Virus record (IMG/VR): IMGVR_UViG_3300017912_000319
Location: 1 to 31,283 of that record
DNA: 31,283 bases
Strand: one strand, 5' to 3'
DNA from: a virus
Taxonomy: Duplodnaviria > Caudoviricetes
The notes beneath the pieces are model-generated. The model did not search any database and had not been told where the DNA came from. It saw nothing but the letters and a program-made list of their open reading frames with translations. This document shows positions 2,085 to 25,644 of this stretch, one piece after another; position 1 is the first letter of the stretch, and each line of letters starts with the position of its first letter. Both the position numbers and the translations under genes were made by a program.

Positions 2085-2088
2085 ACTC

Positions 2089-2679: not shown

Positions 2680-2688
2680 GTTATCCTC

Positions 2689-5550: not shown

Positions 5551-5637
5551 TGTCGGGTTCCTTTTGTGTATAAGTCGGGTGTTAGATAAGTGGGGCCAGC
5601 GCCACCCGACACAGCACCAGCCCCTCCCTTGCGGGAA
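5551..5637 (-). promoter_or_regulatory. structured intergenic RNA: GCAA hairpin plus a 13-bp stem whose loop is complementary to the downstream translation start region
   Basis: Stem 5624-5612/5604-5592 with several G-U pairs; UGUCGGGU is complementary to ACCCGACA at 5558-5551. Confidence 0.55.
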
Positions 5638-5638
5638 C

Positions 5639-6550: not shown

Positions 6551-6573
6551 GTTGTATTTCTCCTATAGGGGTG

Positions 6574-6996
6574 TTACTTGTAGATGTACCAGCCGATGTT
6601 GACCGGGATGAGATACCAAGGGGCATCAATTAACGAGAGGTCTCTCTCAGCGTAGTCAATAGAGACAACAATGGTCTCAGCTTCCCCGTTAGTGTAGGAA
6701 ATGTCTGTCGTGGCTTCAAACCTCTCCAGCAACTTCTCTACTACACCCTCAGCAGCGCCGGGGCCAGCACCTTCTGGGGAAAATACGTTAAGAGAAAATA
6801 TACCACGGTATAACTGTTGCGGGTTCGTGCCTCTTACGGCTGGCCTACGTACCGTGGGGATATAGGCCACTTTGATAAAACTTGTCCCGGTCGTAGGCTC
6901 ATAAGGTACGTTCTCATAAGCAATATCAGGGATGCTTGCGGTGCCAGCCAAGTGAGTTTCTAAAGCAGCACGGATGTCTTTGTTAATGTCAGCCAT
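6574..6996 (-). CDS. tail terminator-like protein
   Basis: 140 aa; IAYENVPYEP, GIFSLNVF and WYLIPVNIGW; immediately before the tube gene. Confidence 0.75.
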   Translation of the reverse strand: MADINKDIRAALETHLAGTASIPDIAYENVPYEPTTGTSFIKVAYIPTVRRPAVRGTNPQQLYRGIFSLNVFSPEGAGPGAAEGVVEKLLERFEATTDISYTNGEAETIVVSIDYAERDLSLIDAPWYLIPVNIGWYIYK

Positions 6997-7450
6997 ACCT
7001 GCTCCTCAGCGTGTTAAATATCTGGTATCCGTTAGGGGGCTTAGGGCCGGGGGGATGAGCGCCACCTTGAACACCGTACTCAACGAACCTAGCGTGGTTA
7101 GCATCATTACGTAGCGTGTAGGACTTATTCTGAAGAAGATCATCCTTGTCAGCAAAAGCTGTCTGAATGTCTCCCAGAAGCTTACCCCTACCCTCTTCCC
7201 TGTCAGCCTCAGAGCCTGTTTTCTTAGGGAACCTCCAGTTAGCGCCATCAATCCTGCGACCACGGCTGCTAGAGTTGTCAGCCTTGAAGGAGAAAGACTT
7301 TACGTAGGCACCAGACCAGATGGGGGACATGTTGATAGCGTCGTTAGCCATAACTGTGAAGTAGTCTTCTAACTGTTCACCTACAGACTCTTTAGCTTGG
7401 TCCTCAATCCTCTTAAGAACATCAAGACCTTTGATTGTTACCTGTGCCAT
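6989..7450 (-). CDS. neck / tail completion protein (HK97 gp10-like)
   Basis: SPIWSGAY and NDANHARFVEYG match the PVxTG...YAxxVEYG pattern. Confidence 0.75.
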   Translation of the reverse strand: MAQVTIKGLDVLKRIEDQAKESVGEQLEDYFTVMANDAINMSPIWSGAYVKSFSFKADNSSSRGRRIDGANWRFPKKTGSEADREEGRGKLLGDIQTAFADKDDLLQNKSYTLRNDANHARFVEYGVQGGAHPPGPKPPNGYQIFNTLRSRYG

Positions 7451-7451
7451 G

Positions 7452-7808
7452 CTACTCCCTCACTTGACAAATGTAGCAGACAACCGTAGAGCCTTCGTAT
7501 ATGGTCTGAACAGAGACGATCCTAACCTCATCACCAACTCCAGAAATCTTGTCGCCTTCGTCGGGGGCAGGCAGAGCAACATTAGAGGTGTCGAAAGCAG
7601 GTATAATAGCTCTACGATCACCCCTAACGATAAAGTCGTCGTTAAGCTCTGAGAGTGTGTAGTCTGCCACGTAGGCTTTTACAGTGTATTCGGTAGTTGT
7701 TGTCGCTACAGTGCCTGTAGAAACCGTATATACGCCTGTAGATACCTTCTTGAGTGTGACAGTCTGACCAAATTCATTAATAAGAGAAAGCGTATCCTTG
7801 TTCAGCAC
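7452..7808 (-). CDS. head closure protein
   Basis: 118 aa; FGQTVTL, IVRGDRR and terminal QVR; gene order. Confidence 0.7.
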   Translation of the reverse strand: MLNKDTLSLINEFGQTVTLKKVSTGVYTVSTGTVATTTTEYTVKAYVADYTLSELNDDFIVRGDRRAIIPAFDTSNVALPAPDEGDKISGVGDEVRIVSVQTIYEGSTVVCYICQVRE

Positions 7809-8263
7809 TAGCCTTCTCCATAACTGTCCGTGTTAGGTGGGTTCCAGAAGCGATCCCTTCGGAACTCAGACCCTACCCTGTTGGTATTGCTCCTAGCAAG
7901 CTCAACCTGTGTCTTAGTTATACCACCAGCAAAAACGCCCAACCTAGAGCCAACCTTCTTAGCCTGATAGTCTAGCTTGTCTGCAAGGGCTTTGTAATGC
8001 TCGTAGAGGTCACTATAGTCTGCCTTGATCTGCCCATCAACCTCAATGTTGACTTTACTGGCGTACTGGGAAGCTATGCTCCTAGCTACGTAAGCGGAGG
8101 CTGTATATACATCATCTGATGTTTGAGACAGGGAAAAAGTTATTTCTTCGTTCTGGACCTGCTGGTTGTTTGTATTAGTATCACCTACTAGGAAGCGAAC
8201 CGTGTTAAGGCGACCTGAGGCGGTGGTCGTATCTAAGTCTGTAGGGTCATAGGACCAAGCCAT
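7808..8263 (-). CDS. head-tail adaptor
   Basis: VRFLVGDT...NEEI motif; located after the capsid genes. Confidence 0.75.
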   Translation of the reverse strand: MAWSYDPTDLDTTTASGRLNTVRFLVGDTNTNNQQVQNEEITFSLSQTSDDVYTASAYVARSIASQYASKVNIEVDGQIKADYSDLYEHYKALADKLDYQAKKVGSRLGVFAGGITKTQVELARSNTNRVGSEFRRDRFWNPPNTDSYGEG

Positions 8264-8281
8264 TTCAGGTCTCCTTGTTGT

Positions 8282-8707
8282 TTACTCTCCGAGAATGTCG
8301 TCTCGAAACTTGTAGAAATCCTCAGCAATCCAAGGGTTCTTACGTAGGAATGAGCGTAGTAATCCACGCTGCTTATCATCAATCTTAGACTGACGACATC
8401 TTTTGTTCTTAAGCTCTTCCGCTGAGGTAGTACGTTTCTTAACCACGTCATTCAGAAGACCTACAAGAGTATAAAGCTGTTCGGAGTTCATTTCACTCAG
8501 ACGATCACCAACTTTATTATCTTTCTCTAATTCTTTATTGTGAAACAGATAACCTGCGGCGTATATAGTATAGACCTTATAAGGGTCCAACTGACGCTCC
8601 TGCCAGTTAAAGTGTTCTCCTCGTGTCCAAGATACACCAGCCGCTTGGAAGGGGTTCTTGACGAATACAGGCCAATCCATTTGGAAGCCAAGCCATGTAG
8701 GGTGCAT
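8282..8707 (-). CDS. hypothetical protein between capsid and adaptor genes
   Basis: 141 aa ORF with AGGA SD, in operon orientation. Confidence 0.7.
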   Translation of the reverse strand: MHPTWLGFQMDWPVFVKNPFQAAGVSWTRGEHFNWQERQLDPYKVYTIYAAGYLFHNKELEKDNKVGDRLSEMNSEQLYTLVGLLNDVVKKRTTSAEELKNKRCRQSKIDDKQRGLLRSFLRKNPWIAEDFYKFRDDILGE

Positions 8708-8754
8708 ATCGCGTTTCCTATTAAGATGTTGTTACGGTATTTTATAATTGGGTT

Positions 8755-8780
8755 GGACCCCAAGCCGAAACTCAGGGTCC
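8755..8780 (-). terminator. stable hairpin after the capsid gene (terminator or mRNA stabiliser)
   Basis: GGACCCTGAGT-TTCG-GCTTGGGGTCC; no U-tract follows. Confidence 0.45.
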
Positions 8781-8798
8781 ACCTTTAGTATATAGCTA

Positions 8799-9776
8799 TT
8801 AAGCTACGCAGGCTTCGAAGAAGTAACCCATTTCAGAGCCGATGAGCTTCATGTCATCAGACGACTTGACTTGGATCATTTCAGCAATCTGCTGGCGCTT
8901 CAGTGCGTCGTCCGAGAAGGACTCAACAGTGATGCCCATTCCGCTAACACCGGGGATCGAGTCCCAGCAGAAGATAGCACCAGCACCGGGGGTACGCAGA
9001 CCCATAGTAGAAGGCGTATACGTCAGCAGGGCATTCTTGCCACCAATGAAACCAAAGGAATCGGTAACACCTTCAGCAGCAGTGTTGCGGACAGCTTCCA
9101 TCACGTAGAAGTTCTCTACTTCGAAGATTTCAGCCAGTTTCGCGTCAGTGATCAACGCAGGGTTAGAGACAGTCGAGCCACCGTTCAGGCGAGCCAGAAT
9201 GTCTGGGTGGTTGATCAGAACATCGCGGACTTCCTTACCAACAACCATCGTGTTCGGCTTATAGCCACCAGAAGCCAGCTGCATGGTGCGACGACCGGTG
9301 GTTACGTCAACGATAGGTGTAGAGTTCGTGTAGTCAGACCACAGGTTGCCCGGAGTGATGTCAGTTCCCCAGATACCAGCGGCAAAGAAAGCCTCAGCCC
9401 AACGAACTTCACGGTCGATCAGGATTTTCTCCATCAGGACGTTTGCACCCTGCGAACGAAGCTCAAGCGCGGTATCTTCGTTAGCAAGAGTCTGCTCGTC
9501 GAAGTCCATGCCGAGGCCACGAACATCAGCAAAATAGCTATCGGTGGACAAAGCCATTCCGACGCGATTAACTTCCGTGCGAGGGGCAAGTACCGTCACG
9601 TCTCCATCACGGAGACCTTCACGGCTGTATTTATAGTATTTGTCCGACTGCTTGCTAACAGAAACCATAGGGAATACTTTGTCAGCAACAAAGTTTTCTG
9701 CGGACTGCATGTAAGCAATAGTCAAGTTTGTGAGAGGTACATCAACGTGCACGTCAGAGGGGGTAAGCATTGGCAT
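8799..9776 (-). CDS. major capsid protein
   Basis: 325 aa; HVDVPLTNLTIAY, FVADKVFP.V.V.KQS and KPNTMVVG; strong AAGGAG SD. Confidence 0.9.
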   Translation of the reverse strand: MPMLTPSDVHVDVPLTNLTIAYMQSAENFVADKVFPMVSVSKQSDKYYKYSREGLRDGDVTVLAPRTEVNRVGMALSTDSYFADVRGLGMDFDEQTLANEDTALELRSQGANVLMEKILIDREVRWAEAFFAAGIWGTDITPGNLWSDYTNSTPIVDVTTGRRTMQLASGGYKPNTMVVGKEVRDVLINHPDILARLNGGSTVSNPALITDAKLAEIFEVENFYVMEAVRNTAAEGVTDSFGFIGGKNALLTYTPSTMGLRTPGAGAIFCWDSIPGVSGMGITVESFSDDALKRQQIAEMIQVKSSDDMKLIGSEMGYFFEACVA

Positions 9777-9800
9777 TTTATGTTCTCCTTAAACGTGCCA

Positions 9801-10175
9801 TTAGGCGACGATGTTGCCACCTTGGATGAGTTCCATAGCGATAATCTGACCGTCAACACCAGCTTCAAGGGCATAGCCCATTACGTAGTCGCCGGAAGCA
9901 GCAGTGATAGCTTCGCCAGTTGCGTTGGTCTGAAGAGCAGCACCAGCAGCAACAGTGCCACCAGCCTCAACAAGACAACGACCAGAGATAGCGACCGTAG
10001 CGGCTTTGTCAGCAGCGTCAGGCTTGTTCAGGAGAATGCCATAGCAGTTTTCTCCTGCCGAGTCAGCAAGGTCAACTTTGCCGTCGGATTCTAGGGTTAC
10101 GAAATGGAACTGTGCAGCCGAAAGGTCTTCGCCAGCTTCCATAGAGCGCGTATCGCGGGTTTGCATAACAGCCAT
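9801..10175 (-). CDS. capsid decoration / cement protein
   Basis: 124 aa Ala/Gly-rich (GYALEAG..GQII) between scaffold and capsid genes. Confidence 0.75.
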   Translation of the reverse strand: MAVMQTRDTRSMEAGEDLSAAQFHFVTLESDGKVDLADSAGENCYGILLNKPDAADKAATVAISGRCLVEAGGTVAAGAALQTNATGEAITAASGDYVMGYALEAGVDGQIIAMELIQGGNIVA

Positions 10176-10178
10176 GAG

Positions 10179-11000
10179 TTATTCTCCTTTGTAGGCTTTA
10201 GCGATTAACGACTTGCCTTCTTCAGTCTTAGCTACGGAAGCATAAGCTTTGGCATAGTCCTTCTTGGTAAGACCGTTTTCATCCATGTACGACTTAACCA
10301 GTTCTTCAATTTTGTCGGAAGCAGAAGCAAAACCGCCATCTACGTCAGACTTGCCGAGTTCGTTCATTTTGTCTGCAAGAGCCGTATCAACAGCTTTTAG
10401 AGCTTCTAGAAGCATGTCTTTCTCTTCAGACTTTTCCACTGCCTTAATAAGACCTTTAGCAGCCTCAGTTGAGAAGTGGGGCAGAGATTCTTCAGCTTTT
10501 TTGGTAAGCTCAATATCTGCCTTTTCGATTTCAGCAGCTTCGAGGGCTTTCAAGATCGGCGTAGGAATGTCAGCCTTGTTGATCTTCTCACCTTCGTACT
10601 CCACAAATTCTACAGGCGCTTTCTTTGAAATGCCTTCCGTAGAGATGACGTAGCCTTCTTCTATGATGCCTTTGCGAAGCTTTTCATTTTCTGCTTTAAG
10701 TTTAGCAATTTCACCTTCAAGGTCTTTAGCGACTTCTTTAGCTTTATCCTCACCTTTTTCAGGGTCTTCAGCCTCCACTTTATCCATCTCATAACCAAGG
10801 GCCTTCATCGCTTCACGATAACCGCAGTTATTTTTTTCCATGTAAGCTTTTACTTTAGCTTCCATCTCTTCAGTCATTTTATCTAGTTCCTCTTCTTTGG
10901 GGACGTCCCGTTTGAAAAGAGTGACCATAGCTTCTGCATTGGCTGGACGATCAACCAATGAAAGCTCTTCTAGTTGAAGTTCCAGCAACTCAGTCGCCAT
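10179..11000 (-). CDS. scaffold protein with an N-terminal protease-like motif
   Basis: Glu/Lys-rich coiled coil; begins with LEELSLVDRPAN; AAGGAG SD. Confidence 0.75.
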   Translation of the reverse strand: MATELLELQLEELSLVDRPANAEAMVTLFKRDVPKEEELDKMTEEMEAKVKAYMEKNNCGYREAMKALGYEMDKVEAEDPEKGEDKAKEVAKDLEGEIAKLKAENEKLRKGIIEEGYVISTEGISKKAPVEFVEYEGEKINKADIPTPILKALEAAEIEKADIELTKKAEESLPHFSTEAAKGLIKAVEKSEEKDMLLEALKAVDTALADKMNELGKSDVDGGFASASDKIEELVKSYMDENGLTKKDYAKAYASVAKTEEGKSLIAKAYKGE

Positions 11001-12168
11001 TGTACTCTCCTTTTACCGCACGACCCCCAATACTGAAGGCTGCGAGTTCACCGCTTTTAACTTTAGACCAGACCTCATCGTCATAGACTTTAAAAGCGAC
11101 CAGCCAACCCTCACGGTCAGCTTCCAAGCCAACGGATTTGTTAATCTCGTCAGTGCAAGGCCACGAGTGGACTACTACACCAATCTGATCTCCGTTGTGC
11201 ATCTGCTTGCCTACACGGACGTGTTCCATGAACTTGTTCACGGCCCTAACGAGCGTGTCTGCTTTGATGATGTCACCCTGACGATCCACAACTGGTTCGC
11301 CATTCTCAGTGACTACTGAAGCCCAGCCATAAACTAGGCGTTGCTCTTCGTCGGATTTTAAAATCTTACCTTCGAGATTCTTTGTCATATCACCAACCGT
11401 AGTTCCTGCTTCCCACATACGACAGGACCAGTATCTTGCACTAGTCTTGTCAGACGCCGTATCGCACGAATGCCGGGAGCGGAAATTGGCGCGAGCTTCG
11501 GGGTCATCTCTTCGGATTTCCATGTTGGGGTCACCAAACGTTACTCGCTTGACTTTATCCCCATCCATAACGAAGACTTCAAACTTCTTGTTTCCACCTT
11601 GAAGACGACGAGGTTTGTTAAGAGTAACCTTTTGGCCTTGATACTCAGCCTTCTGGAACTCTTCCTTAAGGACTTCTTGTACAATGACCCTGAGAGCCTC
11701 TAGGCGGTCCTCTGAGGGCGTGTCTTTATCGTCAGGCTCATAGTGGTGCAGATAGTCCTCATGGCTCTCTCCGGGCATGTACACGGCCTGTCCTTCGTAA
11801 TCATGCACATGTACGTCACCACCTAAACCTAAATCCATACTCCTTGCGCGAGCCTCAGCCTCCGTAGTGAAGATGTCGTTGGCATATTTACCTTTGAGTA
11901 TCTTCTTGGTAGAGGAGGGATGAGAGGAAGGTAATAGGTCTTTGTCATGATTTGCAGGTTTAGACCCAGAGACGATCCGTATGAAGGAATTGACTCTAGC
12001 CATAGCCCACTGCTCAGGAGATTTCACGTTTGGACGAACCGATCCGGGGTTTGTACGGTAGGCACCAACACCTCTGTCGTAGACCGCTTCGAGCATACGC
12101 ATAGTCACTTTATGCTTAGACTTCTTGTTATGCTCTTTCATCTTATTCTGAAGTGCAACTTTAGGCAT
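10990..12168 (-). CDS. multi-domain prohead protease (XkdF-like C-terminal domain)
   Basis: RLVYGWAS, DRQGD, QMH and VKSGELAAFSIGG in the last ~130 aa; extra N-terminal modules. Confidence 0.8.
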   Translation of the reverse strand: MPKVALQNKMKEHNKKSKHKVTMRMLEAVYDRGVGAYRTNPGSVRPNVKSPEQWAMARVNSFIRIVSGSKPANHDKDLLPSSHPSSTKKILKGKYANDIFTTEAEARARSMDLGLGGDVHVHDYEGQAVYMPGESHEDYLHHYEPDDKDTPSEDRLEALRVIVQEVLKEEFQKAEYQGQKVTLNKPRRLQGGNKKFEVFVMDGDKVKRVTFGDPNMEIRRDDPEARANFRSRHSCDTASDKTSARYWSCRMWEAGTTVGDMTKNLEGKILKSDEEQRLVYGWASVVTENGEPVVDRQGDIIKADTLVRAVNKFMEHVRVGKQMHNGDQIGVVVHSWPCTDEINKSVGLEADREGWLVAFKVYDDEVWSKVKSGELAAFSIGGRAVKGEYNGD

Positions 12169-12881
12169 CAGTCATCCAATTCTTCATTTACTAGTACGCC
12201 TTCACCGAAGACGTTCATTTCGTGTGTTCCAGATTTAGTTTTAAGTTGAAACTGTATGTCAGTTTTCTCATCGTACTTAAAAGGCAGTCTACGTTGAATG
12301 TTCATCTGATTCTGAAAAGTGGTTCTAGCTACGTTAAACGTGTGACCAGAACTATTTCTAGTAAAGTTCTTAAACACCCCAGTCTTAGAAGAGGTACTGT
12401 CATTAGAGAAAGCATCAATACGGTATAGGTAGAAACAATGACCAGCGGGTACAGTGTATATACTGGCTTGGTTTCTACCATCCCCAATTCTTATAGCTGC
12501 ATAAACTGTACCACCATTGGAAACTGTAATTAGACCTTGATTACCGTCTGTGTTGAAATAAATAACATCATTAATTCTAAAGAAGGCTTTAGTGGTTGTG
12601 GCTGGTATAGTTATATCTTCAGAGATAATGTTATAGTTTGCATCTAAACCTATAATACGAACAGTGTATCCATTGTCATTTGCAGAATCTGTACTAGCTA
12701 CATCCATTGTTATAGCAGAATTTGGGTAAGTATAAGCTGTAGCGTATTCCCAAGCTGGTATAAAATTCGTAGTTACATTTTCCTGATAACCAAATATGTT
12801 ACGAACTGACAGGTAGTTTGACTCACCTTTGGCTATAGCTAGGGGGTCATGCTCGTACAGGTGTCTTGTCCAAGTAGTCAC
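12168..12881 (-). CDS. hypothetical beta-rich protein, possibly a virion component
   Basis: 237 aa, translationally coupled to portal and protease; AT-rich interior. Confidence 0.7.
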   Translation of the reverse strand: MTTWTRHLYEHDPLAIAKGESNYLSVRNIFGYQENVTTNFIPAWEYATAYTYPNSAITMDVASTDSANDNGYTVRIIGLDANYNIISEDITIPATTTKAFFRINDVIYFNTDGNQGLITVSNGGTVYAAIRIGDGRNQASIYTVPAGHCFYLYRIDAFSNDSTSSKTGVFKNFTRNSSGHTFNVARTTFQNQMNIQRRLPFKYDEKTDIQFQLKTKSGTHEMNVFGEGVLVNEELDD

Positions 12882-14188
12882 TGGATCACCTTCTTAGGTG
12901 GAAGCTCTGCGTTATCCAACAGAGCGTTTACAATATCCTCTTGATCACTAAGATCAATGTTAGCACCGTTGAGGTTGCGTAGGTAGGAACTGAGTTCGCG
13001 GAGGTCGTGAGGTGCGACATCACCAGCAACCAGCTTAGGCATAGTGTTCATGTTGAGGCCGTTAAGCTCATACAGAGGTTCTATGAGGTGTTTGTTGAGG
13101 GTGTCCACAACCTGTGTGATATAGCTTTCCAATGCACGTAGGAATAGGTCCGTCTTGCTCTTGGAGAGGGCATAAGAGCCGTTGGAGCCACCACCAAGCA
13201 TCAGGAACTCCGAGAGTACACTCCTAGCAATGTCATGCTGGTAACGACGGATAATAGGGTCAATTTGAATGTTGCGAGTTCCACTAGAGGACATAAGTTC
13301 AACATCAACCAGACGTTCACTAGTAGGTGCACCATCCTTGTCCGGGTAGGTGTCACTAGGGAGAATAATGTAACCTTGCTCGTTGAACTTGACATCCCGC
13401 AAGATAGACTGCAGTTCGTTACGGAAAGACACCTGACCCGTAGTAGCATCAGGGGACAAATATTCGGCTGGGATGCGAGCAACAGGTATACCGGCCAATT
13501 CGCGTTCAATAGCTACAGCCTCAATAGACTGAAAATTGTTAAGATACTGATAGCTCGTATAGGCATTCCGTAGGATAGACCTGCCAGAAGGATCACCGTT
13601 AATCGTAGTAGTACGATAGTAAAGAGACTTACGGCTGGGGATGTAGTTCTTGCCTGTAGCAAAGCCTGTGCTCTGGTAGATACCCAGAATATCCCCAGTC
13701 TTTTGATCTACGTCAAAACGGTCGATAGTCCAAGGGGAACGACAAGCCAACTTGCGGATACCCATACGACCATCTGTGTACTTGGACTTCTTTTTAGGGT
13801 TCTGATTGGCACCCTCACGGCGCTTGTATACAACTTCAAACCAAGAGAAACCGTAAGATAGGAAACTGAGGGCCTCAGCTATGTGATCGTCCAGAGTGTG
13901 CTCCATATCATCTAGGACACTCTCAACGAACTCCTTCTCTTTAGCAGCGGCTTCACTATCATCGACAGCTTTTACGTTAATGTCTACGTCCCGGAGTATC
14001 TGTTCTACTGCATACATGACAGCGCCGATAGTGCTATCATTGTCACGCATCTCACGATACTTCCTGACAGCATCACGACCTCTGATTTCCCGAAGGAACT
14101 CGTCAGCCCGGAAGTTACCGTTGTGGACATTTTGGCCTGCCACACCTAGAATGTTCATGGATTCTGTTTTTGACAGGCTCTTAGTCAT
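12878..14188 (-). CDS. portal protein (Mu gp29/DUF935-like)
   Basis: 436 aa after terL; LSYGFSWFEVVY, PSGRSILR, IARSVLSEFLMLG..GSYALS. Confidence 0.88.
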   Translation of the reverse strand: MTKSLSKTESMNILGVAGQNVHNGNFRADEFLREIRGRDAVRKYREMRDNDSTIGAVMYAVEQILRDVDINVKAVDDSEAAAKEKEFVESVLDDMEHTLDDHIAEALSFLSYGFSWFEVVYKRREGANQNPKKKSKYTDGRMGIRKLACRSPWTIDRFDVDQKTGDILGIYQSTGFATGKNYIPSRKSLYYRTTTINGDPSGRSILRNAYTSYQYLNNFQSIEAVAIERELAGIPVARIPAEYLSPDATTGQVSFRNELQSILRDVKFNEQGYIILPSDTYPDKDGAPTSERLVDVELMSSSGTRNIQIDPIIRRYQHDIARSVLSEFLMLGGGSNGSYALSKSKTDLFLRALESYITQVVDTLNKHLIEPLYELNGLNMNTMPKLVAGDVAPHDLRELSSYLRNLNGANIDLSDQEDIVNALLDNAELPPKKVIQ

Positions 14189-15558
14189 TAGCTCAGTCCT
14201 TTGTTACTGCTATATACAAGTTTGAGTTGGGGTTTTTGAAAGCCGTTAAGCATTAGATCAGTTAAGGCCCAAACCAGTGCGTCCAGTCTGTCAGGAGAGC
14301 CTATTGAGCCTAGTGGCTCCCATGTACGCATTTGAGTTTCAAGTTCGTTTAGGTTAGCACCGTCCTCTTGGTTCCTGACGTGATATATTAAACCACGCTC
14401 ATACAGGGCAGCTACAGGTTCCGCACGGGCATACTTACCTCTGGAGGCTCTAACCATCCTCAGGGGTACGCTCTCGTCCTCTCCGTGGATCGTATGCTTA
14501 ACCATATCACCACCTTGGTTGACTTCAGCTACAATACGATCAGCTTCATACTGATGATAGAGTTCGATAGCCTTAGCAGCCCAACCTTGAGGGGACAGCC
14601 GGTCAGTATAATCTCCAAGGATATAGCCTTTGCCGTTGACATCAACACCAGCCACAACAATACCAGTCATGTCAGATTCAGCATTAGAAGTAACGGCAGG
14701 GTCAAGTGCCACAACAATACGGGAAAGATCGGGAACCTTGTCTCTGTCCACCTGACAACTGTCGATAGTGTCGGTAGTCCACAGAGCACCTTCGTTTTCT
14801 TCCAAGACCTCAGCATAGAGTTCCTGACGACCAAGCCTAGTGCCTTCATACTGTTCTCTCACAGCATTCAAGTAGGTTCCAGCTAGGTTAGCCTCATTAT
14901 CGAATGTAGAACCGCCAGTTACGTGAACTTTAGGGTCTTTTAATAGTTTTCTTACTAATTTAGTAGATTTTGGTGTAGTTGTAACACAAATGCGCGGGTG
15001 TCTGCCTAAACGAAGGCAAAACTGGAGCATGTCGTATGTATCTTCATCTTTCTTCCATGCTGCCAACTCATCACACCATGCTGCATGAAACTGAGGACCA
15101 CGAAGACGCTCAGGTTCCTCCGCAGAGTAGAACTCTACTACAGCACCGTTATCCCACGACAGAGTACGCTTGGTAGGGGACCACAGGGGATAGCCCATCT
15201 CCTTACCTTTGTGGGTCTTATCGTGCTGAGAGCAACAGTTAAGGAAACCAGACTCACCTTTGACCATAACTCGTTCAATATCCGAGTTTGTCGCTGCTAC
15301 TGCTGCAATCCTCTTGTGGCCCCTCTTGATCTGCTCTCGGACCCACTCAACACCCGCCCTAGTCTTACCAAAGCCTCGCCCTGCGTTGATGAACCAGATA
15401 TTCCAATCTCCATCAGGTTCAAACTGTGCAGGTCTACCCCAGAATGACCAGTCCTTCTCTAGTTCTTCTAGTTCTTTCTTGGTCAGTTGAGATAAAGCTG
15501 CGTCAACCCTACTCTTAGGCAGAGACCTTAGTAAGTCTGCGGTTAGCTTTGATGTCAT
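14188..15558 (-). CDS. terL: terminase large subunit
   Basis: Walker A AGRGFGKTR, Walker B AWCDE, TTTP coupling motif, nuclease VALDPA and PDRLDALVW. Confidence 0.95.
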   Translation of the reverse strand: MTSKLTADLLRSLPKSRVDAALSQLTKKELEELEKDWSFWGRPAQFEPDGDWNIWFINAGRGFGKTRAGVEWVREQIKRGHKRIAAVAATNSDIERVMVKGESGFLNCCSQHDKTHKGKEMGYPLWSPTKRTLSWDNGAVVEFYSAEEPERLRGPQFHAAWCDELAAWKKDEDTYDMLQFCLRLGRHPRICVTTTPKSTKLVRKLLKDPKVHVTGGSTFDNEANLAGTYLNAVREQYEGTRLGRQELYAEVLEENEGALWTTDTIDSCQVDRDKVPDLSRIVVALDPAVTSNAESDMTGIVVAGVDVNGKGYILGDYTDRLSPQGWAAKAIELYHQYEADRIVAEVNQGGDMVKHTIHGEDESVPLRMVRASRGKYARAEPVAALYERGLIYHVRNQEDGANLNELETQMRTWEPLGSIGSPDRLDALVWALTDLMLNGFQKPQLKLVYSSNKGLS

Positions 15559-15573
15559 GTCGGGATTCCTAGT

Positions 15574-15960
15574 TTACTCCTCATCATCATCGTCGGACAA
15601 ACCGAGGAGACCTGTCAGTCGGTTGACTACACCTTCAGTCTCTTCATCCTCAGCACCAACCTCTTGTTCCTGTACGTGAGAACTTGGGGACCAACCAGCA
15701 CGAGAACGTAGGTAAAGCTCTTGGGACTTGAAGTCACCCTCTAGTGCTTGGTCAATAACTGTCTTACCAACCTTAGCATCAAGAGTGAACTTAACTTCAT
15801 CCATATCCTCACGGTACAACTTATAGAAAGTCGTATAGGACTGAGGAGCATTCTTCATATGGAGTACAGACTTGAAGATTTGCTGTACAGAAACACCACC
15901 CGCAATACCTTCACGTACCTTAAGGGCAATGTTAGGATTCTTGGGTAGCTTCTGAGTCAT
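15574..15960 (-). CDS. terminase small subunit (probable)
   Basis: 128 aa directly upstream of terL; HTH-like N-terminus, LYLRSRAGW, acidic tail. Confidence 0.7.
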   Translation of the reverse strand: MTQKLPKNPNIALKVREGIAGGVSVQQIFKSVLHMKNAPQSYTTFYKLYREDMDEVKFTLDAKVGKTVIDQALEGDFKSQELYLRSRAGWSPSSHVQEQEVGAEDEETEGVVNRLTGLLGLSDDDDEE

Positions 15961-16224
15961 TAGGGAGTCCTTTGTTTTTGATTATGTTAGACGGTCGTTA
16001 TTATAAACCGAACAACATAAGTATAGTTACCCCACAACTCATCACCTAATTGTATATGGAAGTGGGGTTCCCTCTCAAGGGAAACTGGGGTATAATATTC
16101 TTAACCGTAAACAATAAGAGAATTGTTCTTAGGTTGAGTTTTTAGTTGGTACTATAGTTATACTGTAGTTTTGATTCTATAATGATTATAAACAAGATGT
16201 ATATAAACCTTAAGGGCAACTTCT

Positions 16225-16283
16225 GTTATACTATAGTTACCCTCTCTCATAAGTATATAGATGGGGATAAAAGCTACGTCAAG
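16225..16283 (-). promoter_or_regulatory. 59-bp promoter element, copy 1, facing the terminase/morphogenesis operon
   Basis: CTTGAC-N17-CTATAT on the minus strand; 57/59 identical to 22067-22125 in inverted orientation. Confidence 0.85.
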
Positions 16284-16814
16284 CAGTTTTTTATTAAGTG
16301 CGTCAATTTGTAGCAACTTTACTGTAGACTGTGACATAAAAAGCACAACTACAGTTACTTTTCTTTTGTTTTTTCTGTGGTGGAGTTTTTAGTACCCGCA
16401 TGTCTGGTGTGCGGTTTGACCCATGTAGGTCCGATGTTTTTCTTTTGTTTTGGATTCTGAGGTACCAACCGGCACCCCCCGCGAATCACCCCCAGAATCC
16501 CTAGGGGCCCCAATGTCAACCCCCTCCCCCGTGATTAATTCGAGAGGTGTGACATATGTGCCGCATGTGTTACTTATGTAACTAGCTTAAGGATTCCAAG
16601 GGTTTACGCTTGACAACGAAAGTTTTTCCTTGCGCTAGGACAGGCGATTCGCACCCATATGTGCAGTGCATACATGTGTCATTCCCCGCCCCTCCCATGC
16701 TCACCCCATGTCCTAACCCAATGCCAACCCCATGATCTACCAATGAAACCCAATAGCCCCATACGGCCCATATGAGAGCCATACAGGGGCAGTGTAAGTT
16801 CCTTAGGTGTGACC

Positions 16815-17671: not shown

Positions 17672-17851
17672 TTACTGGGCTTGCGTGTTGTACACGATAA
17701 CGTCATGGCCATTGGCTCGTGCCTGATCGCAGAGTGCAGATGCCTCGCGGAATGTCAGGTTGCAGGGAATCCCTTCGATTGCCTGAGGTTCTTGGAACGC
17801 CTCATCGAGAGAAGTTACTACCGGGGTTTTGATCAGGGTGTAGGTGTTCAT
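17672..17851 (-). CDS. hypothetical protein, 59 aa (MNTYTLIKTP...)
   Basis: GGAG SD; its TAA overlaps the AAGGAG SD of the next gene; not in the supplied track. Confidence 0.7.
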   Translation of the reverse strand: MNTYTLIKTPVVTSLDEAFQEPQAIEGIPCNLTFREASALCDQARANGHDVIVYNTQAQ

Positions 17852-17889
17852 TGTGTTATTCTCCGATTGGTTGGTTGGTTTGTTGTGGT

Positions 17890-17917
17890 TAGGCAGTTTT
17901 GACGCTTGCCTAGGCGT
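17890..17917 (-). ncRNA. compact H-type pseudoknot candidate
   Basis: ACGC/GCGU and UAGGCA/UGCCUA interleaved, with a CAAAAC loop; related motif at 18209-18230. Confidence 0.5.
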
Positions 17918-17923
17918 TAGGGG

Positions 17924-18115
17924 TTAGCCGATTAGGTCACTAGGGGGCAGTTCATAATGGTCCGACAGTTTGACCTTGCCCTCATAGTTTATGTAGAGAA
18001 GGGGGCTTTCATCACCATAGACAGGGTGTTCATAAAATGGCACCCCATCGACTGATCCAATGTAAGTTGCTTTTTCTACCAGACGTTTTGCTTTCTCAGT
18101 TTTAGGTTTATTCAT
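17924..18115 (-). CDS. hypothetical protein, first gene of the leftward early operon
   Basis: 63 aa; AGGAAAG SD; FYEHPVYGDESPL motif. Confidence 0.7.
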   Translation of the reverse strand: MNKPKTEKAKRLVEKATYIGSVDGVPFYEHPVYGDESPLLYINYEGKVKLSDHYELPPSDLIG

Positions 18116-18130
18116 GTTTTCACTTTCCTA

Positions 18131-18199
18131 GTTGATTGGCTCGTTGTTTCGTTAGGTTTCTCATCAGGTGCAGCTACCAGCGCCACACGACAACTCAAC
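18131..18199 (-). ncRNA. hammerhead ribozyme (type III topology, minimal stem II)
   Basis: GUUG-UC, stem I GUGUGGC/GCUGCAC, CUGAUGA (18167-18161), G-AAACCUAA-C, GAAA, CAAC; all core nucleotides present; predicted cut between 18189 and 18188. Confidence 0.85.
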
Positions 18200-18369
18200 C
18201 TCCGAAACCAGTTTTAGCACCTGCCCGTGTCTAAGTAATCCTCAACGGTTCACTAGGGCGCTATCCTACAGCAAGGGCGGCAATCCTCCATACGCGCTAG
18301 GCGTGGGGCGTTCCTATCGGGGTTCGCGGGAGGGGGCTAAAGCCGCGTCCGTCGCTTCCGATAACAAAG

Positions 18370-18398
18370 ATCTAAGCCCTGCGATTCCGATTCTCAAC
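18370..18398 (-). promoter_or_regulatory. leftward early promoter (putative)
   Basis: GTTGAG-N17-TTAGAT containing two GANTC sites; phased A/T tracts upstream at 18404-18435. Confidence 0.55.
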
Positions 18399-18922
18399 CC
18401 CCCAAAAGCAAAAAAATGCAAAAAACCTGAAAAAAGTTTCCGGGGTCAATCTCGCAGAATATTGGGGGTTTTCTTCCTATACGAATCGGTATAAGGTGAT
18501 TCCTGAGGTCGGACATAGCCCGGACAGGCTGGTCTCCGGACGGTTTAGGAGTGTGGAATCCGACTCTATAGTTTAACCATTAAACTACCGGAACGAATCG
18601 TGCACAAAATCTCAGAACAAAATCCGGAGTGTCAAGGAATCTTTTCGTTTGACTAAACCTGATTCGCTCTGATAGGGTGGAGGTCTGGGACTTACGAATC
18701 AAACGAATCACTGGAGGCGCAATAGTAAACAGGAGAATCGGTAAAGTAAACCCATTGTAACAATTATCACGAATCGGTTACTTCAGTGAAACAATGTCCT
18801 GTCAAGGGTTGACTCGGCAATCGTTACTTTTGTGACTGATTCGTAATATTTTGTGATGTAAGAATCGTTCACAATCTTATGTCAAGGGGTTGACAGCTAA
18901 AATGTGAACTTTGTGACGATTC
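18383..18922. promoter_or_regulatory. GANTC site cluster (17 sites)
   Basis: Sites start at 18383, 18389, 18483, 18498, 18556, 18562, 18595, 18637, 18661, 18696, 18705, 18735, 18771, 18811, 18838, 18862 and 18918. Confidence 0.85.
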
Positions 18923-18963
18923 GTAACAATTCGTGAAGTGACCTAGGGTCAGCACCTACGACC

Positions 18964-19077
18964 CCCCCACGTGGGAATTGTTCACCCCTACGTGGGAATT
19001 GTTCGCCTGACCATACGATGACTATCGTCACCCCCACGAGGGAATTGTTCAGGGTCACCCCTACGTGGGAATTGTTC
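18964..19077 (+). repeat. four 20-bp direct repeats CCCCYACGWGGGAATTGTTC
   Basis: Copies at 18964, 18985, 19031 and 19058. Confidence 0.92.
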
Positions 19078-19140
19078 AGGAACGTATGTGACGTTACAAG
19101 GAACGTATGGTAAACTACTGAAACCAGACCAAAATAATCT

Positions 19141-19169
19141 CTTGACTATCGAAGAGAATCAGCTTATAA
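19141..19169 (+). promoter_or_regulatory. early promoter 1
   Basis: CTTGAC-N17-TTATAA with GAATC at spacer positions 10-14. Confidence 0.8.
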
Positions 19170-19201
19170 CCGATACCAGAGATGAAGAAAGGAGCTAACA
19201 C

Positions 19202-21229: not shown

Positions 21230-21472
21230 ATGAACATCTACTACATGGGCAAGAACCTGACAGAATCTGAATTTCCAATCGTAGTATGGAACACACGTAT
21301 TCCACGCAACATCAAGGGTGTAACTCAATGCCCCCAAGAGGAATACGAGAACAGACCTCGTGGCTGGGGTGAACCTGAAGGTGGCGGTGGCCCTGACGCT
21401 TGGGCTACTATTGTAAACAATACAGACAGCGCACGTCGAGACACTTTCCCACGGGAGGTAGCACCAGTATGA
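21230..21472 (+). CDS. hypothetical protein
   Basis: 80 aa; GAGGA SD; ATGA overlap with the next gene. Confidence 0.65.
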   Translation: MNIYYMGKNLTESEFPIVVWNTRIPRNIKGVTQCPQEEYENRPRGWGEPEGGGGPDAWATIVNNTDSARRDTFPREVAPV

Positions 21473-22056
21473 CACCTGATTTTATCATAGGTATGGCTAA
21501 AAGGTCAGCCGCTAAATACCGCAACATAAGCCACAAGGAAGACTTAGTATCTGAGGGCTTGATGGCAGCTTATGAGGAACTGGCAGAGAACCCACAGGCT
21601 ACTCCCGGTCGTGTCTATCAGGTAATAAGTACCGCACAATGGAAGTTCCTGAATGTTGACTGTTTGTCTGTGACTGTTCCTTTTGAGGTTGTGCGTCTAG
21701 CTAAAGGGTTAGGCTCACCAGAGGATAAGCGTGGGTACACAGAGGAGATGATTGAGTGGGCTAAACTGATCTGTGATTCACCACAGTTCGACTCTATCCT
21801 TCACGAAAAAGACGTAGAATCTGACCAAACGGAAGCCTATGAGGAGCAGGATTTGGTTCAGGTTGTGTGGGAAGCTGCAAGGGAATGTCTGACAGAAGAT
21901 GAGTATGACCTGTTTCATGCTTACTTTGAGAAGAATCTTAACGGTGAGCAGATAGGTTTTAACCTTGGTGTTACCCGTCAGGCGGTGAACTTAAAGGTTA
22001 TAAAGGCGTCTGAAAAGGTCAGGAAGCATATTGCGAACAAAAAATGGGAGTTGTAA
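21469..22056 (+). CDS. sigma-70-like transcription factor
   Basis: Region 2-like EDLVSEGLMAAYE; region 4-like LTEDE...EQIGFNLGVTRQAV HTH; GGAGG SD. Confidence 0.75.
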   Translation: MTPDFIIGMAKRSAAKYRNISHKEDLVSEGLMAAYEELAENPQATPGRVYQVISTAQWKFLNVDCLSVTVPFEVVRLAKGLGSPEDKRGYTEEMIEWAKLICDSPQFDSILHEKDVESDQTEAYEEQDLVQVVWEAARECLTEDEYDLFHAYFEKNLNGEQIGFNLGVTRQAVNLKVIKASEKVRKHIANKKWEL

Positions 22057-22194: not shown

Positions 22195-23790
22195 ATGAGT
22201 AACATCATGGGACCGTGTCCCTTTACTAGTTGCGGTTCATCTGATGCGTTCAGTTGGGAGACAGAGAAACAAGTGGGTAAGTGCTTCAGTTGTGAGCAAA
22301 GCTACCCACATAGTAGGATGGTATGTGAACCTTGGGTGGCTGAAAAGTACCCACTAAAGAATGATAGGAAACAAATGGACGATATTACCCCGAAGTCAGA
22401 CAGTGACATTTTCATGGTGGTAGACAATACTAGCTCTGACGGTTTGGAATACAGACCCTACCGAGGGATTAGCTATGCAACTATGGAGTTCTACGGTGTA
22501 AAGACAAACGACAATAAGCAGGTGTACCCTTACCCTAACGGCACTAACAAGGTGCGGTTACTTCCGAAGGACTTTAGTAGGAACGCAGGGTTCAAGGCTG
22601 ACAGTTTGTTTGGTAGCAACCTGTTCCCTGTAGGGTGTGCACGTAAGGTGACTGTCTGTGAGGGTGAACTAGACGCCATGAGCGCCCATCAGATGCTCTC
22701 TGGGGGCGGTTACATTAACCCTGTGGTTTCCCTGCCTTCAGCAAGCCCTAATGGTAAGCTGTGGGGTAAAGTGTCGGCTTACTTAGACAGCTTCGACCAG
22801 ATTATATTGTCTGTAGATAATGATGATAAAGGGCGTGAGGTAGCTGAGGTTCTGTTTGACCTGTTCCCTGAGAAGGTCCACATCATGGATCACGGTGTAC
22901 ACAAAGACGCCAATGACTTCCTGATAGCTAACGAGGAAAGGGCTTACAAGAATGCTTGGTGGTCAGCTAAGAAGTACAGCCCAGCAGGCTTCACAGCGGG
23001 TGCTGAGGACTGGCTTAAGGCTGTACATGAGGAGACACCCTATGAGTACACACCGACGTTCTCTGAGGGGCTGAACGACACTATACGGGGTTGGGTCAAG
23101 GGTGGTATCACAGTTGTTAAGGCACCTCCGGGTACTGGTAAGACTTCTGTGTTCCGGGCCTCCCAGCATGATCTTGTGGTAAACAAAGGTCAACGTGTTG
23201 GTGTCTTGCACATGGAGGAGATGAAGAGTACGACAGCACGGGGTATGGCAACGTATCACCTTGGTAAGAACGTGAACACACAGGAAGACCAGGATTTCTA
23301 TGGCGTCAGTAATGAACAACTTGACATTGCTATCTCTGAGGTAGTAGAGGATAACAAGTTCGTTGCTTTTGAGGTCAACCCTCAAGACCCTATTGATGAT
23401 ACGCTCAAGCAGGCCAAGTACGCAGTGACAGTTTACGGGTGTGACTACCTGTTCATTGACCACCTGCAACGCCTAGCGTATCTATCTGGTGTTGATGGCG
23501 CTACTGCTGCTCTGACGGAGTTGGGTGTACGTTTGGTTGAGTTCTCTAAGCGACGTAACGTAGGGATCATCTGTATCTCTCACGTCAACGACGATGGCAA
23601 GACTAAGTATGCCAAGTCAATCGAAGAGGAAGCTATTATGCTGATCGAACTGAAACGCGACATGAAGGCTGAAGGTGATGACTCCAACTACACTCATGTA
23701 GAAGTCACAAAGAACCGTCCGTACTCACGTCTAGGAAATTCTGGTCGTCTGTACTATGATCCTGAGACTACTATTGTAAAGGGGGTATGA
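22195..23790 (+). CDS. T7 gp4-like primase/helicase
   Basis: N-terminal Cys4 zinc finger, TOPRIM CEGELDA and DND, KDAND, Walker A APPGTGKT, FIDHL, KNR. Confidence 0.93.
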   Translation: MSNIMGPCPFTSCGSSDAFSWETEKQVGKCFSCEQSYPHSRMVCEPWVAEKYPLKNDRKQMDDITPKSDSDIFMVVDNTSSDGLEYRPYRGISYATMEFYGVKTNDNKQVYPYPNGTNKVRLLPKDFSRNAGFKADSLFGSNLFPVGCARKVTVCEGELDAMSAHQMLSGGGYINPVVSLPSASPNGKLWGKVSAYLDSFDQIILSVDNDDKGREVAEVLFDLFPEKVHIMDHGVHKDANDFLIANEERAYKNAWWSAKKYSPAGFTAGAEDWLKAVHEETPYEYTPTFSEGLNDTIRGWVKGGITVVKAPPGTGKTSVFRASQHDLVVNKGQRVGVLHMEEMKSTTARGMATYHLGKNVNTQEDQDFYGVSNEQLDIAISEVVEDNKFVAFEVNPQDPIDDTLKQAKYAVTVYGCDYLFIDHLQRLAYLSGVDGATAALTELGVRLVEFSKRRNVGIICISHVNDDGKTKYAKSIEEEAIMLIELKRDMKAEGDDSNYTHVEVTKNRPYSRLGNSGRLYYDPETTIVKGV

Positions 23791-24233
23791 TGGAAACAGT
23801 ATTCGACATTGAGACCAACGGACTTCTTGATGTGGTAGACAGAGTGCATGTGGTGAGCTATATGGATGAGACCATGAGTGAACCTTCATCCCTGTATGAC
23901 TACGAGGAAATCAAGGGGTTCTTCAAGCAGGATCGTGTATTCATCGGCCACCACATCATAGGCTATGACTTCCCAGCACTGGCTAAGGTGTTGCAGGTGT
24001 CTAATCCTAAGCGTCTAGTGGATACTTACCCTTTGGCTGTTACTCTGATGCCTAACAGAAAAAGTTACGGTCTCGAAGGATTTGGGGTTGAATACGGTGT
24101 ACCTAAGCCTGTAGTTAAGGACTGGGAGAACCTGACACGAGAGGACTACACATTTCGTTGCGAAAGTGACGTCAAGATAAACTGGTCTCTCTGGCAGGCC
24201 CTACGACGGAAATTAGGTGAGTTGTATGGATAA
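23787..24233 (+). CDS. 3'-5' exonuclease domain of a family A DNA polymerase, as a separate ORF
   Basis: ExoI FDIET, ExoII GHHIIGYD, ExoIII RCESDV. Confidence 0.88.
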   Translation: MMETVFDIETNGLLDVVDRVHVVSYMDETMSEPSSLYDYEEIKGFFKQDRVFIGHHIIGYDFPALAKVLQVSNPKRLVDTYPLAVTLMPNRKSYGLEGFGVEYGVPKPVVKDWENLTREDYTFRCESDVKINWSLWQALRRKLGELYG

Positions 24234-25644
24234 ACCTCTAAGTGATGACGCATGGCGCTACATTGAGTATCTTAACTTCAAGATGCAATGTGCCGCAGAT
24301 CAGGAGAGACTGAAGTGGAAGGTAGATGTACCTAAAGCTGAGGCCCTGTTGGAAACATTGGAGACTATCGAAAAGGAAAAACATGAAGAACTAGTAAAGG
24401 CTATGCCCAAGAAGCCTATCCTGAAGACTGTCAATCGTCCTAAGGTTATGTACAAGAAGGATGGTACACTATCCTCCCACGGAGCCAACTTTGAGGCTAA
24501 ACGTAAGGAGAACTGCCAGCCAGAAGACGTACAGAGCTTTAACATCATCGACGGTTACGAGGATGGCAACCCCGGATCACACGCACAAGTAAAGGACTGG
24601 CTGTACAGCTTAGGTTGGCAACCCTGCACGTTTGACTATAAACGAGAGCCTAATGGAGACACTAGGACAATCCCACAAGTAAGGGAAGAAGGGGAACTGA
24701 CTGAGAGCGTAGTGAGGTTGGCAGACGTTGACCCTGCTGTTAAGGTTCTTGAAGGTCTGTCTATTGTTCAGCACCGTATTGGTGTAGTCAAAAGCTTCCT
24801 CAAGGCACTCGACAGTGAAGGCTACGTGTTTGCTGGTGTACATGGTCTAACGAATACCTTGCGGTTCAAGCATGTGAAGCCTCTGGCTAACCTTCCGGGT
24901 GTCGATAAGGCTTATGGTAAGGACATCCGAGGTCTTCTGGTTGCACCTGAGGGTTACTGCTTGTGTGGGGCCGATATGGACAGCTTGGAACAGAACACTA
25001 AGATGCACTATATGACGCCTTATGATCCTGACTATGTGGCTACACAGCAGACTGAAGGGTTCGATGCACACCTAGACCTTGCACTATTTGCTGGGGCTGT
25101 AACCGAGGAGCAGATAGAGCAACACAATAGAACAGGAAGCCTAAAGTCTGTACGTAAGGCTTACAAGGTAACGAACTACAGTGCTACCTATGGCATCAAG
25201 CCTTTAGGTCTGTCTCGTAGGGGTGGCTTCTCGGTCAAGGACGCAGAGGAGCTTCTGGATGCCTTTTGGAAACGTAACTGGGCGCTTGAGAAAATTGCCA
25301 AGGATGCCAAGACTAAGAAGACTAGGGATGGGCAGATGTGGATTAAGAACCCTGTGTCTGGTTTCTGGTATTCCTTGCGGCATGACAAAGACCGCTTCAG
25401 TACGCTAAACCAGAGTACAGGTGTCTACTGTTTTGATACTTGGTTAGGGTACTGTATTGAACTAGGGTTGTCCGCTATAGGGCAGTTCCATGATGAAGCT
25501 ATCTTCTTGGTTAAGCATGGCGATGAACTGAAGACTTCTGATGTAGTCTACGGTGCCATGGATAAGACTAACGAGAAGCTGAAGCTAAACGTGACACTGT
25601 CAACTGCACCTGAGTTTGGGTGCAACTACTCTGAAATCCACTAA
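24226..25644 (+). CDS. family A DNA polymerase, polymerase domain
   Basis: Motif A GADMDSLE, motif B RKAYKVTNYSATYG, motif C FHDE; AGGTGAG upstream of the ATG at 24226. Confidence 0.93.
   Translation: MDKPLSDDAWRYIEYLNFKMQCAADQERLKWKVDVPKAEALLETLETIEKEKHEELVKAMPKKPILKTVNRPKVMYKKDGTLSSHGANFEAKRKENCQPEDVQSFNIIDGYEDGNPGSHAQVKDWLYSLGWQPCTFDYKREPNGDTRTIPQVREEGELTESVVRLADVDPAVKVLEGLSIVQHRIGVVKSFLKALDSEGYVFAGVHGLTNTLRFKHVKPLANLPGVDKAYGKDIRGLLVAPEGYCLCGADMDSLEQNTKMHYMTPYDPDYVATQQTEGFDAHLDLALFAGAVTEEQIEQHNRTGSLKSVRKAYKVTNYSATYGIKPLGLSRRGGFSVKDAEELLDAFWKRNWALEKIAKDAKTKKTRDGQMWIKNPVSGFWYSLRHDKDRFSTLNQSTGVYCFDTWLGYCIELGLSAIGQFHDEAIFLVKHGDELKTSDVVYGAMDKTNEKLKLNVTLSTAPEFGCNYSEIH

Follow-up and report, generated by a model that had tools for sequence, protein, structure and literature searches.

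The window analysed here, which is the whole stretch of 31,283 bases, carries PHROG matches of a tailed phage: its minus strand encodes head and tail proteins (639-15960), and a primase/helicase, a polymerase, an exonuclease and a ribonucleotide reductase are encoded on the plus strand. Among annotated phages, Roseobacter phage CRP-6 comes closest in its terminase (61.5%), and the best three matching sequencing runs are seawater metagenomes from a single study; we infer that the host is an alphaproteobacterium. None of the matching runs listed is an RNA run, which speaks neither for nor against transcription here. Below a non-coding divergent region lies a leftward group of small genes (18115-16582), namely a PHROG 11770 gene, a 59-aa ORF and a GP88-like gene, which is termed an early operon on the basis of the gene layout. 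Elsewhere, the DNA polymerase (23787-25644) is split over two overlapping ORFs that each match PHROG 17, and an ORF at 21400-22056 displays weak similarity to region 4 of sigma factors.

Several further peculiarities of this region were observed. GANTC, the alphaproteobacterial CcrM/GcrA site, is dense at 18363-19200 (18 in 838 nt; 21.5 per kb) and at 16000-16600 (5 in 600 nt), whereas coding regions have 1.1-3.3 per kb, and the spacer of related promoters also contains GAATC. A 27-nt repeat whose core is palindromic occurs four times at 18960-19080, two further repeats spaced 80 nt apart lie at 18791-18939, and the X1 and X3 contigs have a 16-base deletion at 19080; an origin, an operator or a packaging region is possible at 18960-19080. 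An intergenic hairpin with a 6-bp stem and an 11-nt loop (17890-17912, minus strand) follows the first gene of the leftward operon. Its 19-base core is identical in the related phages L390 and L393 (601-619 in both), in the same kind of position, a sequence similar to its loop is also found in the leader described below, at 18221-18211, and X1 and X3 turn to different sequence right after it (loose end 17886). This hairpin is possibly a site for protein binding or cassette exchange.

The minus strand leading into the first gene is read as follows, in the direction of transcription:

18392..18397, minus: TTGAGA, the predicted -35 hexamer, following a T-rich stretch; same layout in L390/L394, L395 and L396
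18369..18374, minus: predicted -10 hexamer TAGATC after a 17-nt spacer; TAGATT at the matching place of L390
18189..18362, minus: predicted 174-nt 5' cleavage product, a non-coding leader of 57% GC
18316..18362, minus: possible irregular hairpin at the 5' end of the leader, AUCGG/CCGAU around a GGC-UUUA-GCC tip; similar in appearance to the 5' domain in one other leader family
18197..18208, minus: decoy GUUUCG-G-AGGUU, complement of CGAAAC (18151-18146) and AACCU (18158-18154)
18190..18194, minus: 5' strand of stem III, GUUGU, including G16.2 and U16.1; stem III covaries in the subfamily
18188..18189, minus: cleavage site predicted from the hammerhead consensus, after C17 (18189) of GUC
18168..18188, minus: stem I with the 7-nt loop I GCUGGUA; kissing triplet GGU at 18178-18176
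18161..18167, minus: catalytic core CUGAUGA
18151..18160, minus: 1-bp stem II (G10.1-C11.1) closing the 8-nt loop II AAACCUAA; kissing triplet ACC at 18157-18155
18143..18150, minus: core GAA (18150-18148) and 3' strand of stem III, ACAAC (18147-18143); conserved 3' boundary of the cassette
18123..18129, minus: Shine-Dalgarno-like AGGAAAG of the first gene, beginning 13 nt past stem III
17924..18115, minus: first gene, 63 aa, PHROG 11770, with its AUG at 18115

The hammerhead motif and its kissing-loop subfamily

The original prediction had placed a minus-strand hammerhead at 18131..18199, and each of its elements is indeed found where it was said to lie. The GUC site, CUGAUGA and GAAA are combined with a stem I, a stem II and a stem III of 7, 1 and 5 bp, all borne out by the sequence, to give a type III hammerhead; the strands of stem I, GUGUGGC (18188-18182) and GCUGCAC (18174-18168), form seven pairs of which two are G-U. 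The class consensus (C3-U-G-A-N-G-A9, G12-A-A, A15.1-U16.1 and H17) is present in full, with A18147-U18190 as the A15.1-U16.1 pair and C18189 as H17, and stems I, II and III meet in a three-way junction. Loops close stems I and II and the RNA ends lie in stem III, which is the type III topology; a type II reading was rejected, there being no type II-like CGAAAC hairpin upstream. The motif is the sole type III descriptor match on both strands of the window. Dinucleotide shuffles of the window match the loose descriptor in 19 of 1000 cases and the strict one, with at least seven pairs in stem I and at least five in stem III, in none of 1000. The comparison with Rfam hammerhead models that had been proposed as a check turned out negative: no hammerhead match was obtained across the window even at E<=10, and RF00008, with its gathering score of 48.5 bits, has no match at E<=10 in 17850-18420. 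The local fold z-score at the motif is -0.41.

Relatives were collected by pattern scans in which the letters of the core and the spacing were fixed and base pairing was left free. The viral scans gave 95 loci and at least 119 loci, the GTDB scan 52 loci, and the metagenome scan at least 119 loci (total estimated at about 150). Under the spacing rule GUC-21 nt-CUGAUGAG-5 to 8 nt-CGAAAC, a perfect 7-pair stem I was found in 39 of 50 viral and 112 of 119 metagenome matches, among the matches listed, and in 5 of 54 GTDB matches, four of which represent two copies on one contig that were counted twice; among the 52 GTDB loci, one contig with two copies fits well and one locus is doubtful. Since a perfect stem I is common in the viral and metagenome matches and rare in GTDB, the subfamily looks largely confined to free phage sequence. 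Filtering for at least six of seven pairs in stem I and at least four in stem III left at least 94 distinct sequences, the window included. Members with fewer than four pairs in stem III were removed before this count, and loci departing from the 21-nt spacing also stand outside it, namely L136, L158, L175 and L208, and the variants with a bulge or an 8-nt loop I (L104, L185, L100/L103, L099, L132). The first four fit either a type II or a type III drawing, since CGAAAC stands on both sides of the core.

In the alignment of the 94 sequences among the matches listed, 98.3% of the cells are paired, and double-sided changes occur at all seven pairs of stem I and at 3 of the 5 pairs of stem III, both of these stems having entered the filter. 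The kiss between loop I positions 4-6 and loop II positions 3-5 did not enter it, and the metagenome pattern set four letters of loop I and none of loop II. Across the same 94 sequences (among the matches listed) 98.9% of the kiss cells are paired; double-sided changes number 24 and 13 at two of its pairs, and the G-C in the middle is invariant. Six triplet pairs are seen on varied stems: GGU/ACC, GGC/GCC, AGU/ACU, UGU/ACA, CGU/ACG and CGC/GCG. The kiss is kept in 28 of 32 distinct loop combinations against a permutation mean of 8.7, and in a second set in 47 of 54 against 16.8 (0 of 20000 permutations each, among the matches listed), although the members are related and these counts therefore overstate independence. 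Stem II carries no covariation, being a single invariant G-C that the search patterns fix. A fourth pair, U-A, extends the kiss in 50 of the 94 members among the matches listed, and the window copy has three pairs. Its GGU/ACC is the commonest kissing pair among the matches listed; hence, of the partners originally proposed for loop II, the loop I triplet is the conserved one, and that pairing is upheld by the covariation of the subfamily.

The absent Rfam match, the local fold z-score and the shuffles that match loose descriptors would fit a hammerhead look-alike that arose by chance. Set against these are the exact fit of the window copy to the fixed geometry of 93 others, including the kissing register (among the matches listed), and the conserved boundary at stem III in the X4 and X5 contigs, and the covariation across the subfamily effectively refutes a chance resemblance, to which we give next to no credence. 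On the whole, these sequence comparisons indicate that the window motif is very probably a genuine hammerhead and a selected ribozyme.

Members of the subfamily are typically placed before a gene. A Shine-Dalgarno-like motif with an AUG is found within 150 nt in 83 of the 94 members among the matches listed, and the distance from cut to AUG has a median of 60 nt (among the matches listed), the window having 73; the proteins that follow are small, with a PHROG match in 3 of 29. Among the matches listed that have a 600-nt flank, 52 of 65 lack a same-strand Shine-Dalgarno-led ORF of 50 aa whose end lies within 120 nt upstream; the other 13 of 65 adjoin such an ORF, leaving no leader to release there; under a looser ORF rule, short ORFs come nearer to the ribozyme in some members. 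In members without an upstream ORF the mean GC goes up from 0.47 (at about -400) to 0.59 immediately ahead of the site, as expected if a promoter precedes a GC-rich leader. A crude consensus promoter scan gave too weak a signal for counting promoters: sites lie upstream of 11 of 89 members, and the controls have them in 6 of 89 and 2 of 59. Blastn of two subfamily cores against annotated phages returned chance matches only, and thus no cultured carrier, and the window region gave one chance match in the same comparison. Two near-identical members lying 1387 nt apart (L255/L256), each before a homologous 87-aa gene, share one contig that is binned as Solirubrobacterales; no other GTDB case is clear.

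Predicted promoter, leader and optional cassette

The predicted promoter, read from the sequence, would start transcription near 18362, although the TTGAGA/TAGATC pair is not listed by a sigma70 scan of the window. If this promoter is used, the original placement of the site before the first gene, with a 5' product of about 175 nt, holds. The leader (18189..18362) contains no Shine-Dalgarno-led ORF over 28 codons, and its folding is no better than that of shuffles (z +1.93). A plus-strand ORF of 108 codons that overlaps it (18168-18494) was rejected as a gene, having neither a Pfam match nor a Shine-Dalgarno sequence. No homology between this leader and another leader family could be shown: an nhmmer profile of the family (L100/L133/L151/L201/L317) has no match in it at E<=10, and the covariance model R2 gives a non-significant 4.5 bits (E 0.52), over the 5' hairpin only. 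Blastn to the L201 leader region gives E 1.7e-5 with the promoter included, and an 18-base pattern from the leader was found at 18 loci, each unrelated to the cassette. The first gene shares 67% identity with its counterpart in the cassette-free L390 and 40% with the gene after the ribozyme in L133; a protein search with its 63-aa product returned no locus.

Comparison with relatives suggests that the leader and ribozyme come and go together. L390/L394 share with the window an upstream conserved element, the shape of the promoter, the first gene and the hairpin after that gene, and their distance from the -10 hexamer to the AUG is 29 nt versus 253 nt in the window; in L395 and L396 the promoter leads straight into a gene. 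The ribozyme subfamily model has no match in L390/L394, L395 or L396, nor in CRP-6 or in L001 and L002, which are relatives by a 229-aa GP88-like protein; the relatives searched are fragment records, five of them 13-60% complete. Conversely, two contigs from another single study, one each of runs X4 and X5 (at low depths of 4.8 and 3.1), match the window from the promoter through the leader to the ribozyme with about 95% identity, and diverge exactly after stem III (18143) into two different Shine-Dalgarno-AUG starts. Their listed differences in the transcribed part all fall in 18213-18255 and avoid 18143-18212 and 18256-18370, with one further difference in X5 and two in X4 unlisted. As X4 and X5 keep the cassette and differ after 18143, and L390 is without it, the leader and ribozyme move as a unit independent of the next gene. 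Judged by these alignments, they are an optional insert of about 224 nt between the predicted promoter and the first gene. The cassette shows neither a mobility gene nor a terminal repeat.

Other leaders precede the same ribozyme elsewhere. One family (L100, L133, L151, L201/L348, L303, L317) is multi-branched and 155-190 nt long; in this cluster of six sequences, two of them nearly identical, 12 of 32 predicted pairs show double-sided changes, and L348, the sole member scanned, has no Rfam match. Conserved, apparently structured leaders were also observed in L274, L276, L280, L283, L324, L327, L343, L366, L382 and L389, and a further such group comprises L207, L330, L364, L365 and L370. L025 (113-184), L326 (308-375), and L291 and L298 (1228-1292 in both) additionally have a type II hammerhead, which lies downstream of the type III copy at a distance of a few hundred bases.

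Possible roles of the predicted cleavage of the early transcript

We favour the view that the type III hammerhead, with its one-pair stem II and covarying kiss, likely cuts the predicted early transcript after C18189 to give a 174-nt leader and a 5'-OH mRNA. Self-cleavage is here predicted from the intact core and from the activity of a type II counterpart described in the available part of PMC3088659. Transcription would begin at about 18362 from the predicted promoter, presumably early in infection, and cleavage 3' of C17 would, by established chemistry, end the leader in a cyclic phosphate and give the message a 5'-OH. The downstream message would then begin with the stem I hairpin as a cap and serve the first genes. 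5'-OH ends resist 5'-end-dependent decay. The purpose might be to mature the 3' end of the leader into a separate RNA cargo, with the message gaining a defined new 5' end; after the cut, an RNA of about 174 nt would be freed and a short-leader message restored. That the same gene is expressed in a ribozyme-free relative makes it the simplest reading that the ribozyme serves the insert. Three features of the window copy weigh against this explanation, namely a competing inactive rod favoured by 9-10 kcal/mol, a kiss of three pairs and the leader folding value of z +1.93, to which the non-significant match with the other leader family is added, so that a function for the released RNA is hypothetical. 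On the side of the subfamily, the weak promoter scan and the 13 of 65 members close behind an upstream ORF also count against it.

The rod arises from the decoy upstream of stem III. The original prediction had offered GGUUU (18209-18205) as another partner for AAACC in loop II; the complementarity is real and in fact longer, at 11 bp, but it is unique to this copy and was equalled by shuffles. In the predicted rod the 11 Watson-Crick pairs of the decoy are joined by pairing of UUGUC with the core, and stem I is extended. The rod lies 9-10 kcal/mol below the best hammerhead-compatible fold, the fifth highest gap of 93 members, against a subfamily median of 4.3 kcal/mol (both among the matches listed). 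The gap is 2.2 kcal/mol with 12 nt of upstream sequence and 9-10 kcal/mol with at least 25 nt, in a model without tertiary energy, and the probability of the rod is near 0.99 once CGAAAC is made, in a model that omits the energy of core and kiss. As the decoy competes with the active fold, the window copy may, by these models, cut slowly or incompletely. It could further be supposed that the ribozyme is a conditional switch, off while the decoy (18208-18197) forms the rod and on when the leader, a protein or an RNA captures the decoy. The 11 in-register pairs cover CGAAAC as well as the kissing triplet, and in the rod the cleavage site is paired, too, with the core. Before the ribozyme emerges (at 18196), the decoy is predicted to be mostly paired within the leader, at 0.8-0.9 for most of its bases, and only afterwards to go over to the rod. 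However, GUUUCG within 45 nt upstream is found in the window only, of 93 members among the matches listed, and the same gap is reached by 66 of 1000 shuffles of the upstream 40 nt, which is not significant. Among 89 members in the matches listed, the least-interfering 5% bin contains 22 and the most-interfering 5% bin 4, counts inflated by stems III of more than 5 bp. X4 and X5 have no listed change in the decoy, but at 95% identity an unchanged 12-mer carries little weight. We therefore regard such switching as unlikely.

Two further proposals shift the benefit of cleavage away from the leader. According to the original prediction the cut frees the ribosome-binding region, so that translation of the first gene would be turned on by removal of a masking strand. 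GUUGA (18199-18195) and UCAAC (18135-18131) are complementary as had been noted, and could lengthen stem III to one base before the Shine-Dalgarno sequence; elsewhere in the subfamily, stem III covers at least three Shine-Dalgarno bases in 14 of 76 members and at least one in 24 of 76, and the predicted Shine-Dalgarno access rises by more than 0.1 in 20 of 76 (all among the matches listed). In the window copy, however, 13 nt separate stem III from the Shine-Dalgarno sequence, the extension falls one base short of it and has probability 0.0 in the model ensemble, and the predicted change in access on cleavage is -0.04, with a subfamily median of 0.01 among the matches listed. X4 and X5 keep the cassette and lose UCAAC, and AAUCAAC is also present in the short 5' UTRs of the ribozyme-free L390 and L393, which makes UCAAC likely to be ancestral UTR sequence. 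Hence masking of the ribosome-binding site by stem III may hold for a minority of the subfamily, not for the window copy, and release of translation seems very improbable here. Scarcely better placed, and quite improbable in our estimation, is the notion that the cassette is a hitch-hiking mobile piece behind early promoters, which the ribozyme only excises and whose leader is idle (or whose copy is decaying). It accords with the presence and absence of the cassette among close relatives, with leaders that fall into many unrelated clusters (34 of 118 singletons, among the matches listed) and with the lack of a folding signal in this leader. It is opposed by the lack of any mobility gene or terminal repeat noted above, by the covarying structure in another leader family, and by the clustering of the listed X4/X5 differences in 18213-18255, though one recombination patch would look alike.

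Returning to cleavage in the service of the leader, a more specific and decidedly tentative proposal is that the subtype is a 3'-end maturation device for small structured RNAs, carried by free phages as the first cargo of early operons and swapped like early protein genes; the 174-nt RNA would here act on the host or the transcription machinery, with its release gated by the decoy. If the leaders prove functional, ribozyme-released leaders would represent phage small RNAs. The fixed geometry, the consistent place before a start codon and the comparison of relatives with and without the cassette make the question of whether the message or the leader benefits directly testable.

Comparison with known hammerheads

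The window subtype resembles RF00008 (Hammerhead_3) and bacterial type III hammerheads in its open stem III, GUC, CUGAUGA, GAAA and G10.1-C11.1, and differs from them in the one-pair stem II and in the 3-pair Watson-Crick kiss, held in a fixed register with a 7-bp/7-nt stem-loop I. Over 36 loci, the best subfamily member scores 33.3 bits with RF00008 versus the gathering score of 48.5. It is thus a very compact type III fold (51-54 nt) that is missed by Rfam. RiboJ and like ribozyme insulators are engineered self-cleavers of different ribozyme sequence, and the analogy with them is functional only: a self-cleaver before the ribosome-binding site would fix the 5' end independently of the leader.

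The available parts of PMC3088659 describe pseudoknots in all three hammerhead types, hammerheads that flank phage and prophage genes, including one situated 13 nt ahead of the first gene in the early transcript of a halovirus, and the processing of native transcripts by prophage hammerheads. A type II hammerhead with a 1-bp stem II and a pseudoknot cleaved there at more than 1.2/min in 0.5 mM Mg2+, and shortening the pseudoknot from 6 bp to 4 cost about 20-fold. In Fig. S4 of that paper, the text of which is garbled, the 1-bp stem II class is apparently given for type II only. The pseudoknot class defined in the same available parts has at least 4 bp between stems I and II, and the window copy has 3 pairs; the viroid-type loop contact (U-Nm-Y-N / R-Nm-A, legend to Fig. 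S5) needs U first in loop I, where the window has G. Over 34 cores the first base of loop I is A in 24, G in 9 and C in 1.

Another counterpart is seen in RF02276 (Hammerhead_II), which displays the same contact: loop I has UGG in the consensus, and a tail complementary to it follows CUGAUGAG. Its stem II is open and its stem III a hairpin, whereas in the window stem II is closed by a loop and stem III joins leader to message. In L025 the type II copy has a stem I, loop I and tail nearly equal to those of the type III copy, and the two predicted ribozymes of this locus are, as far as their sequences indicate, a natural circular-permutation pair. By the same comparison, the subtype is a putative type III circular permutation of the pseudoknotted type II form, overlooked by the Rfam models. 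RAGATH-1 (RF03152), as presented in the accessible portion of PMC11300833, also has a reduced stem II whose loop enters a pseudoknot, of 6 pairs, the partner being an extra stem-loop (helix IV) on helix I. In the window the partner is loop I itself, in a type III topology with a closed stem I, in place of an open stem I and a pseudoknot between loop II and an additional 5' stem-loop.

The available parts of PMC10085705, PMC6765202, PMC5737381 and PMC6155905 describe no hammerhead of type III whose stem II is a single pair, and the role of hammerheads in bacteria and phages is there described as largely open (PMC6765202, PMC6155905). The literature accessible to the search gave no description of the subtype, and members of the subfamily may already stand in the type III alignment of Dataset S1 of PMC3088659. 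The chemistry and the phage setting are already known, as are phage hammerheads with pseudoknots (PMC3088659); what appears new is a predicted kissing type III subtype that in the window resides in an exchangeable, promoter-proximal RNA cassette.
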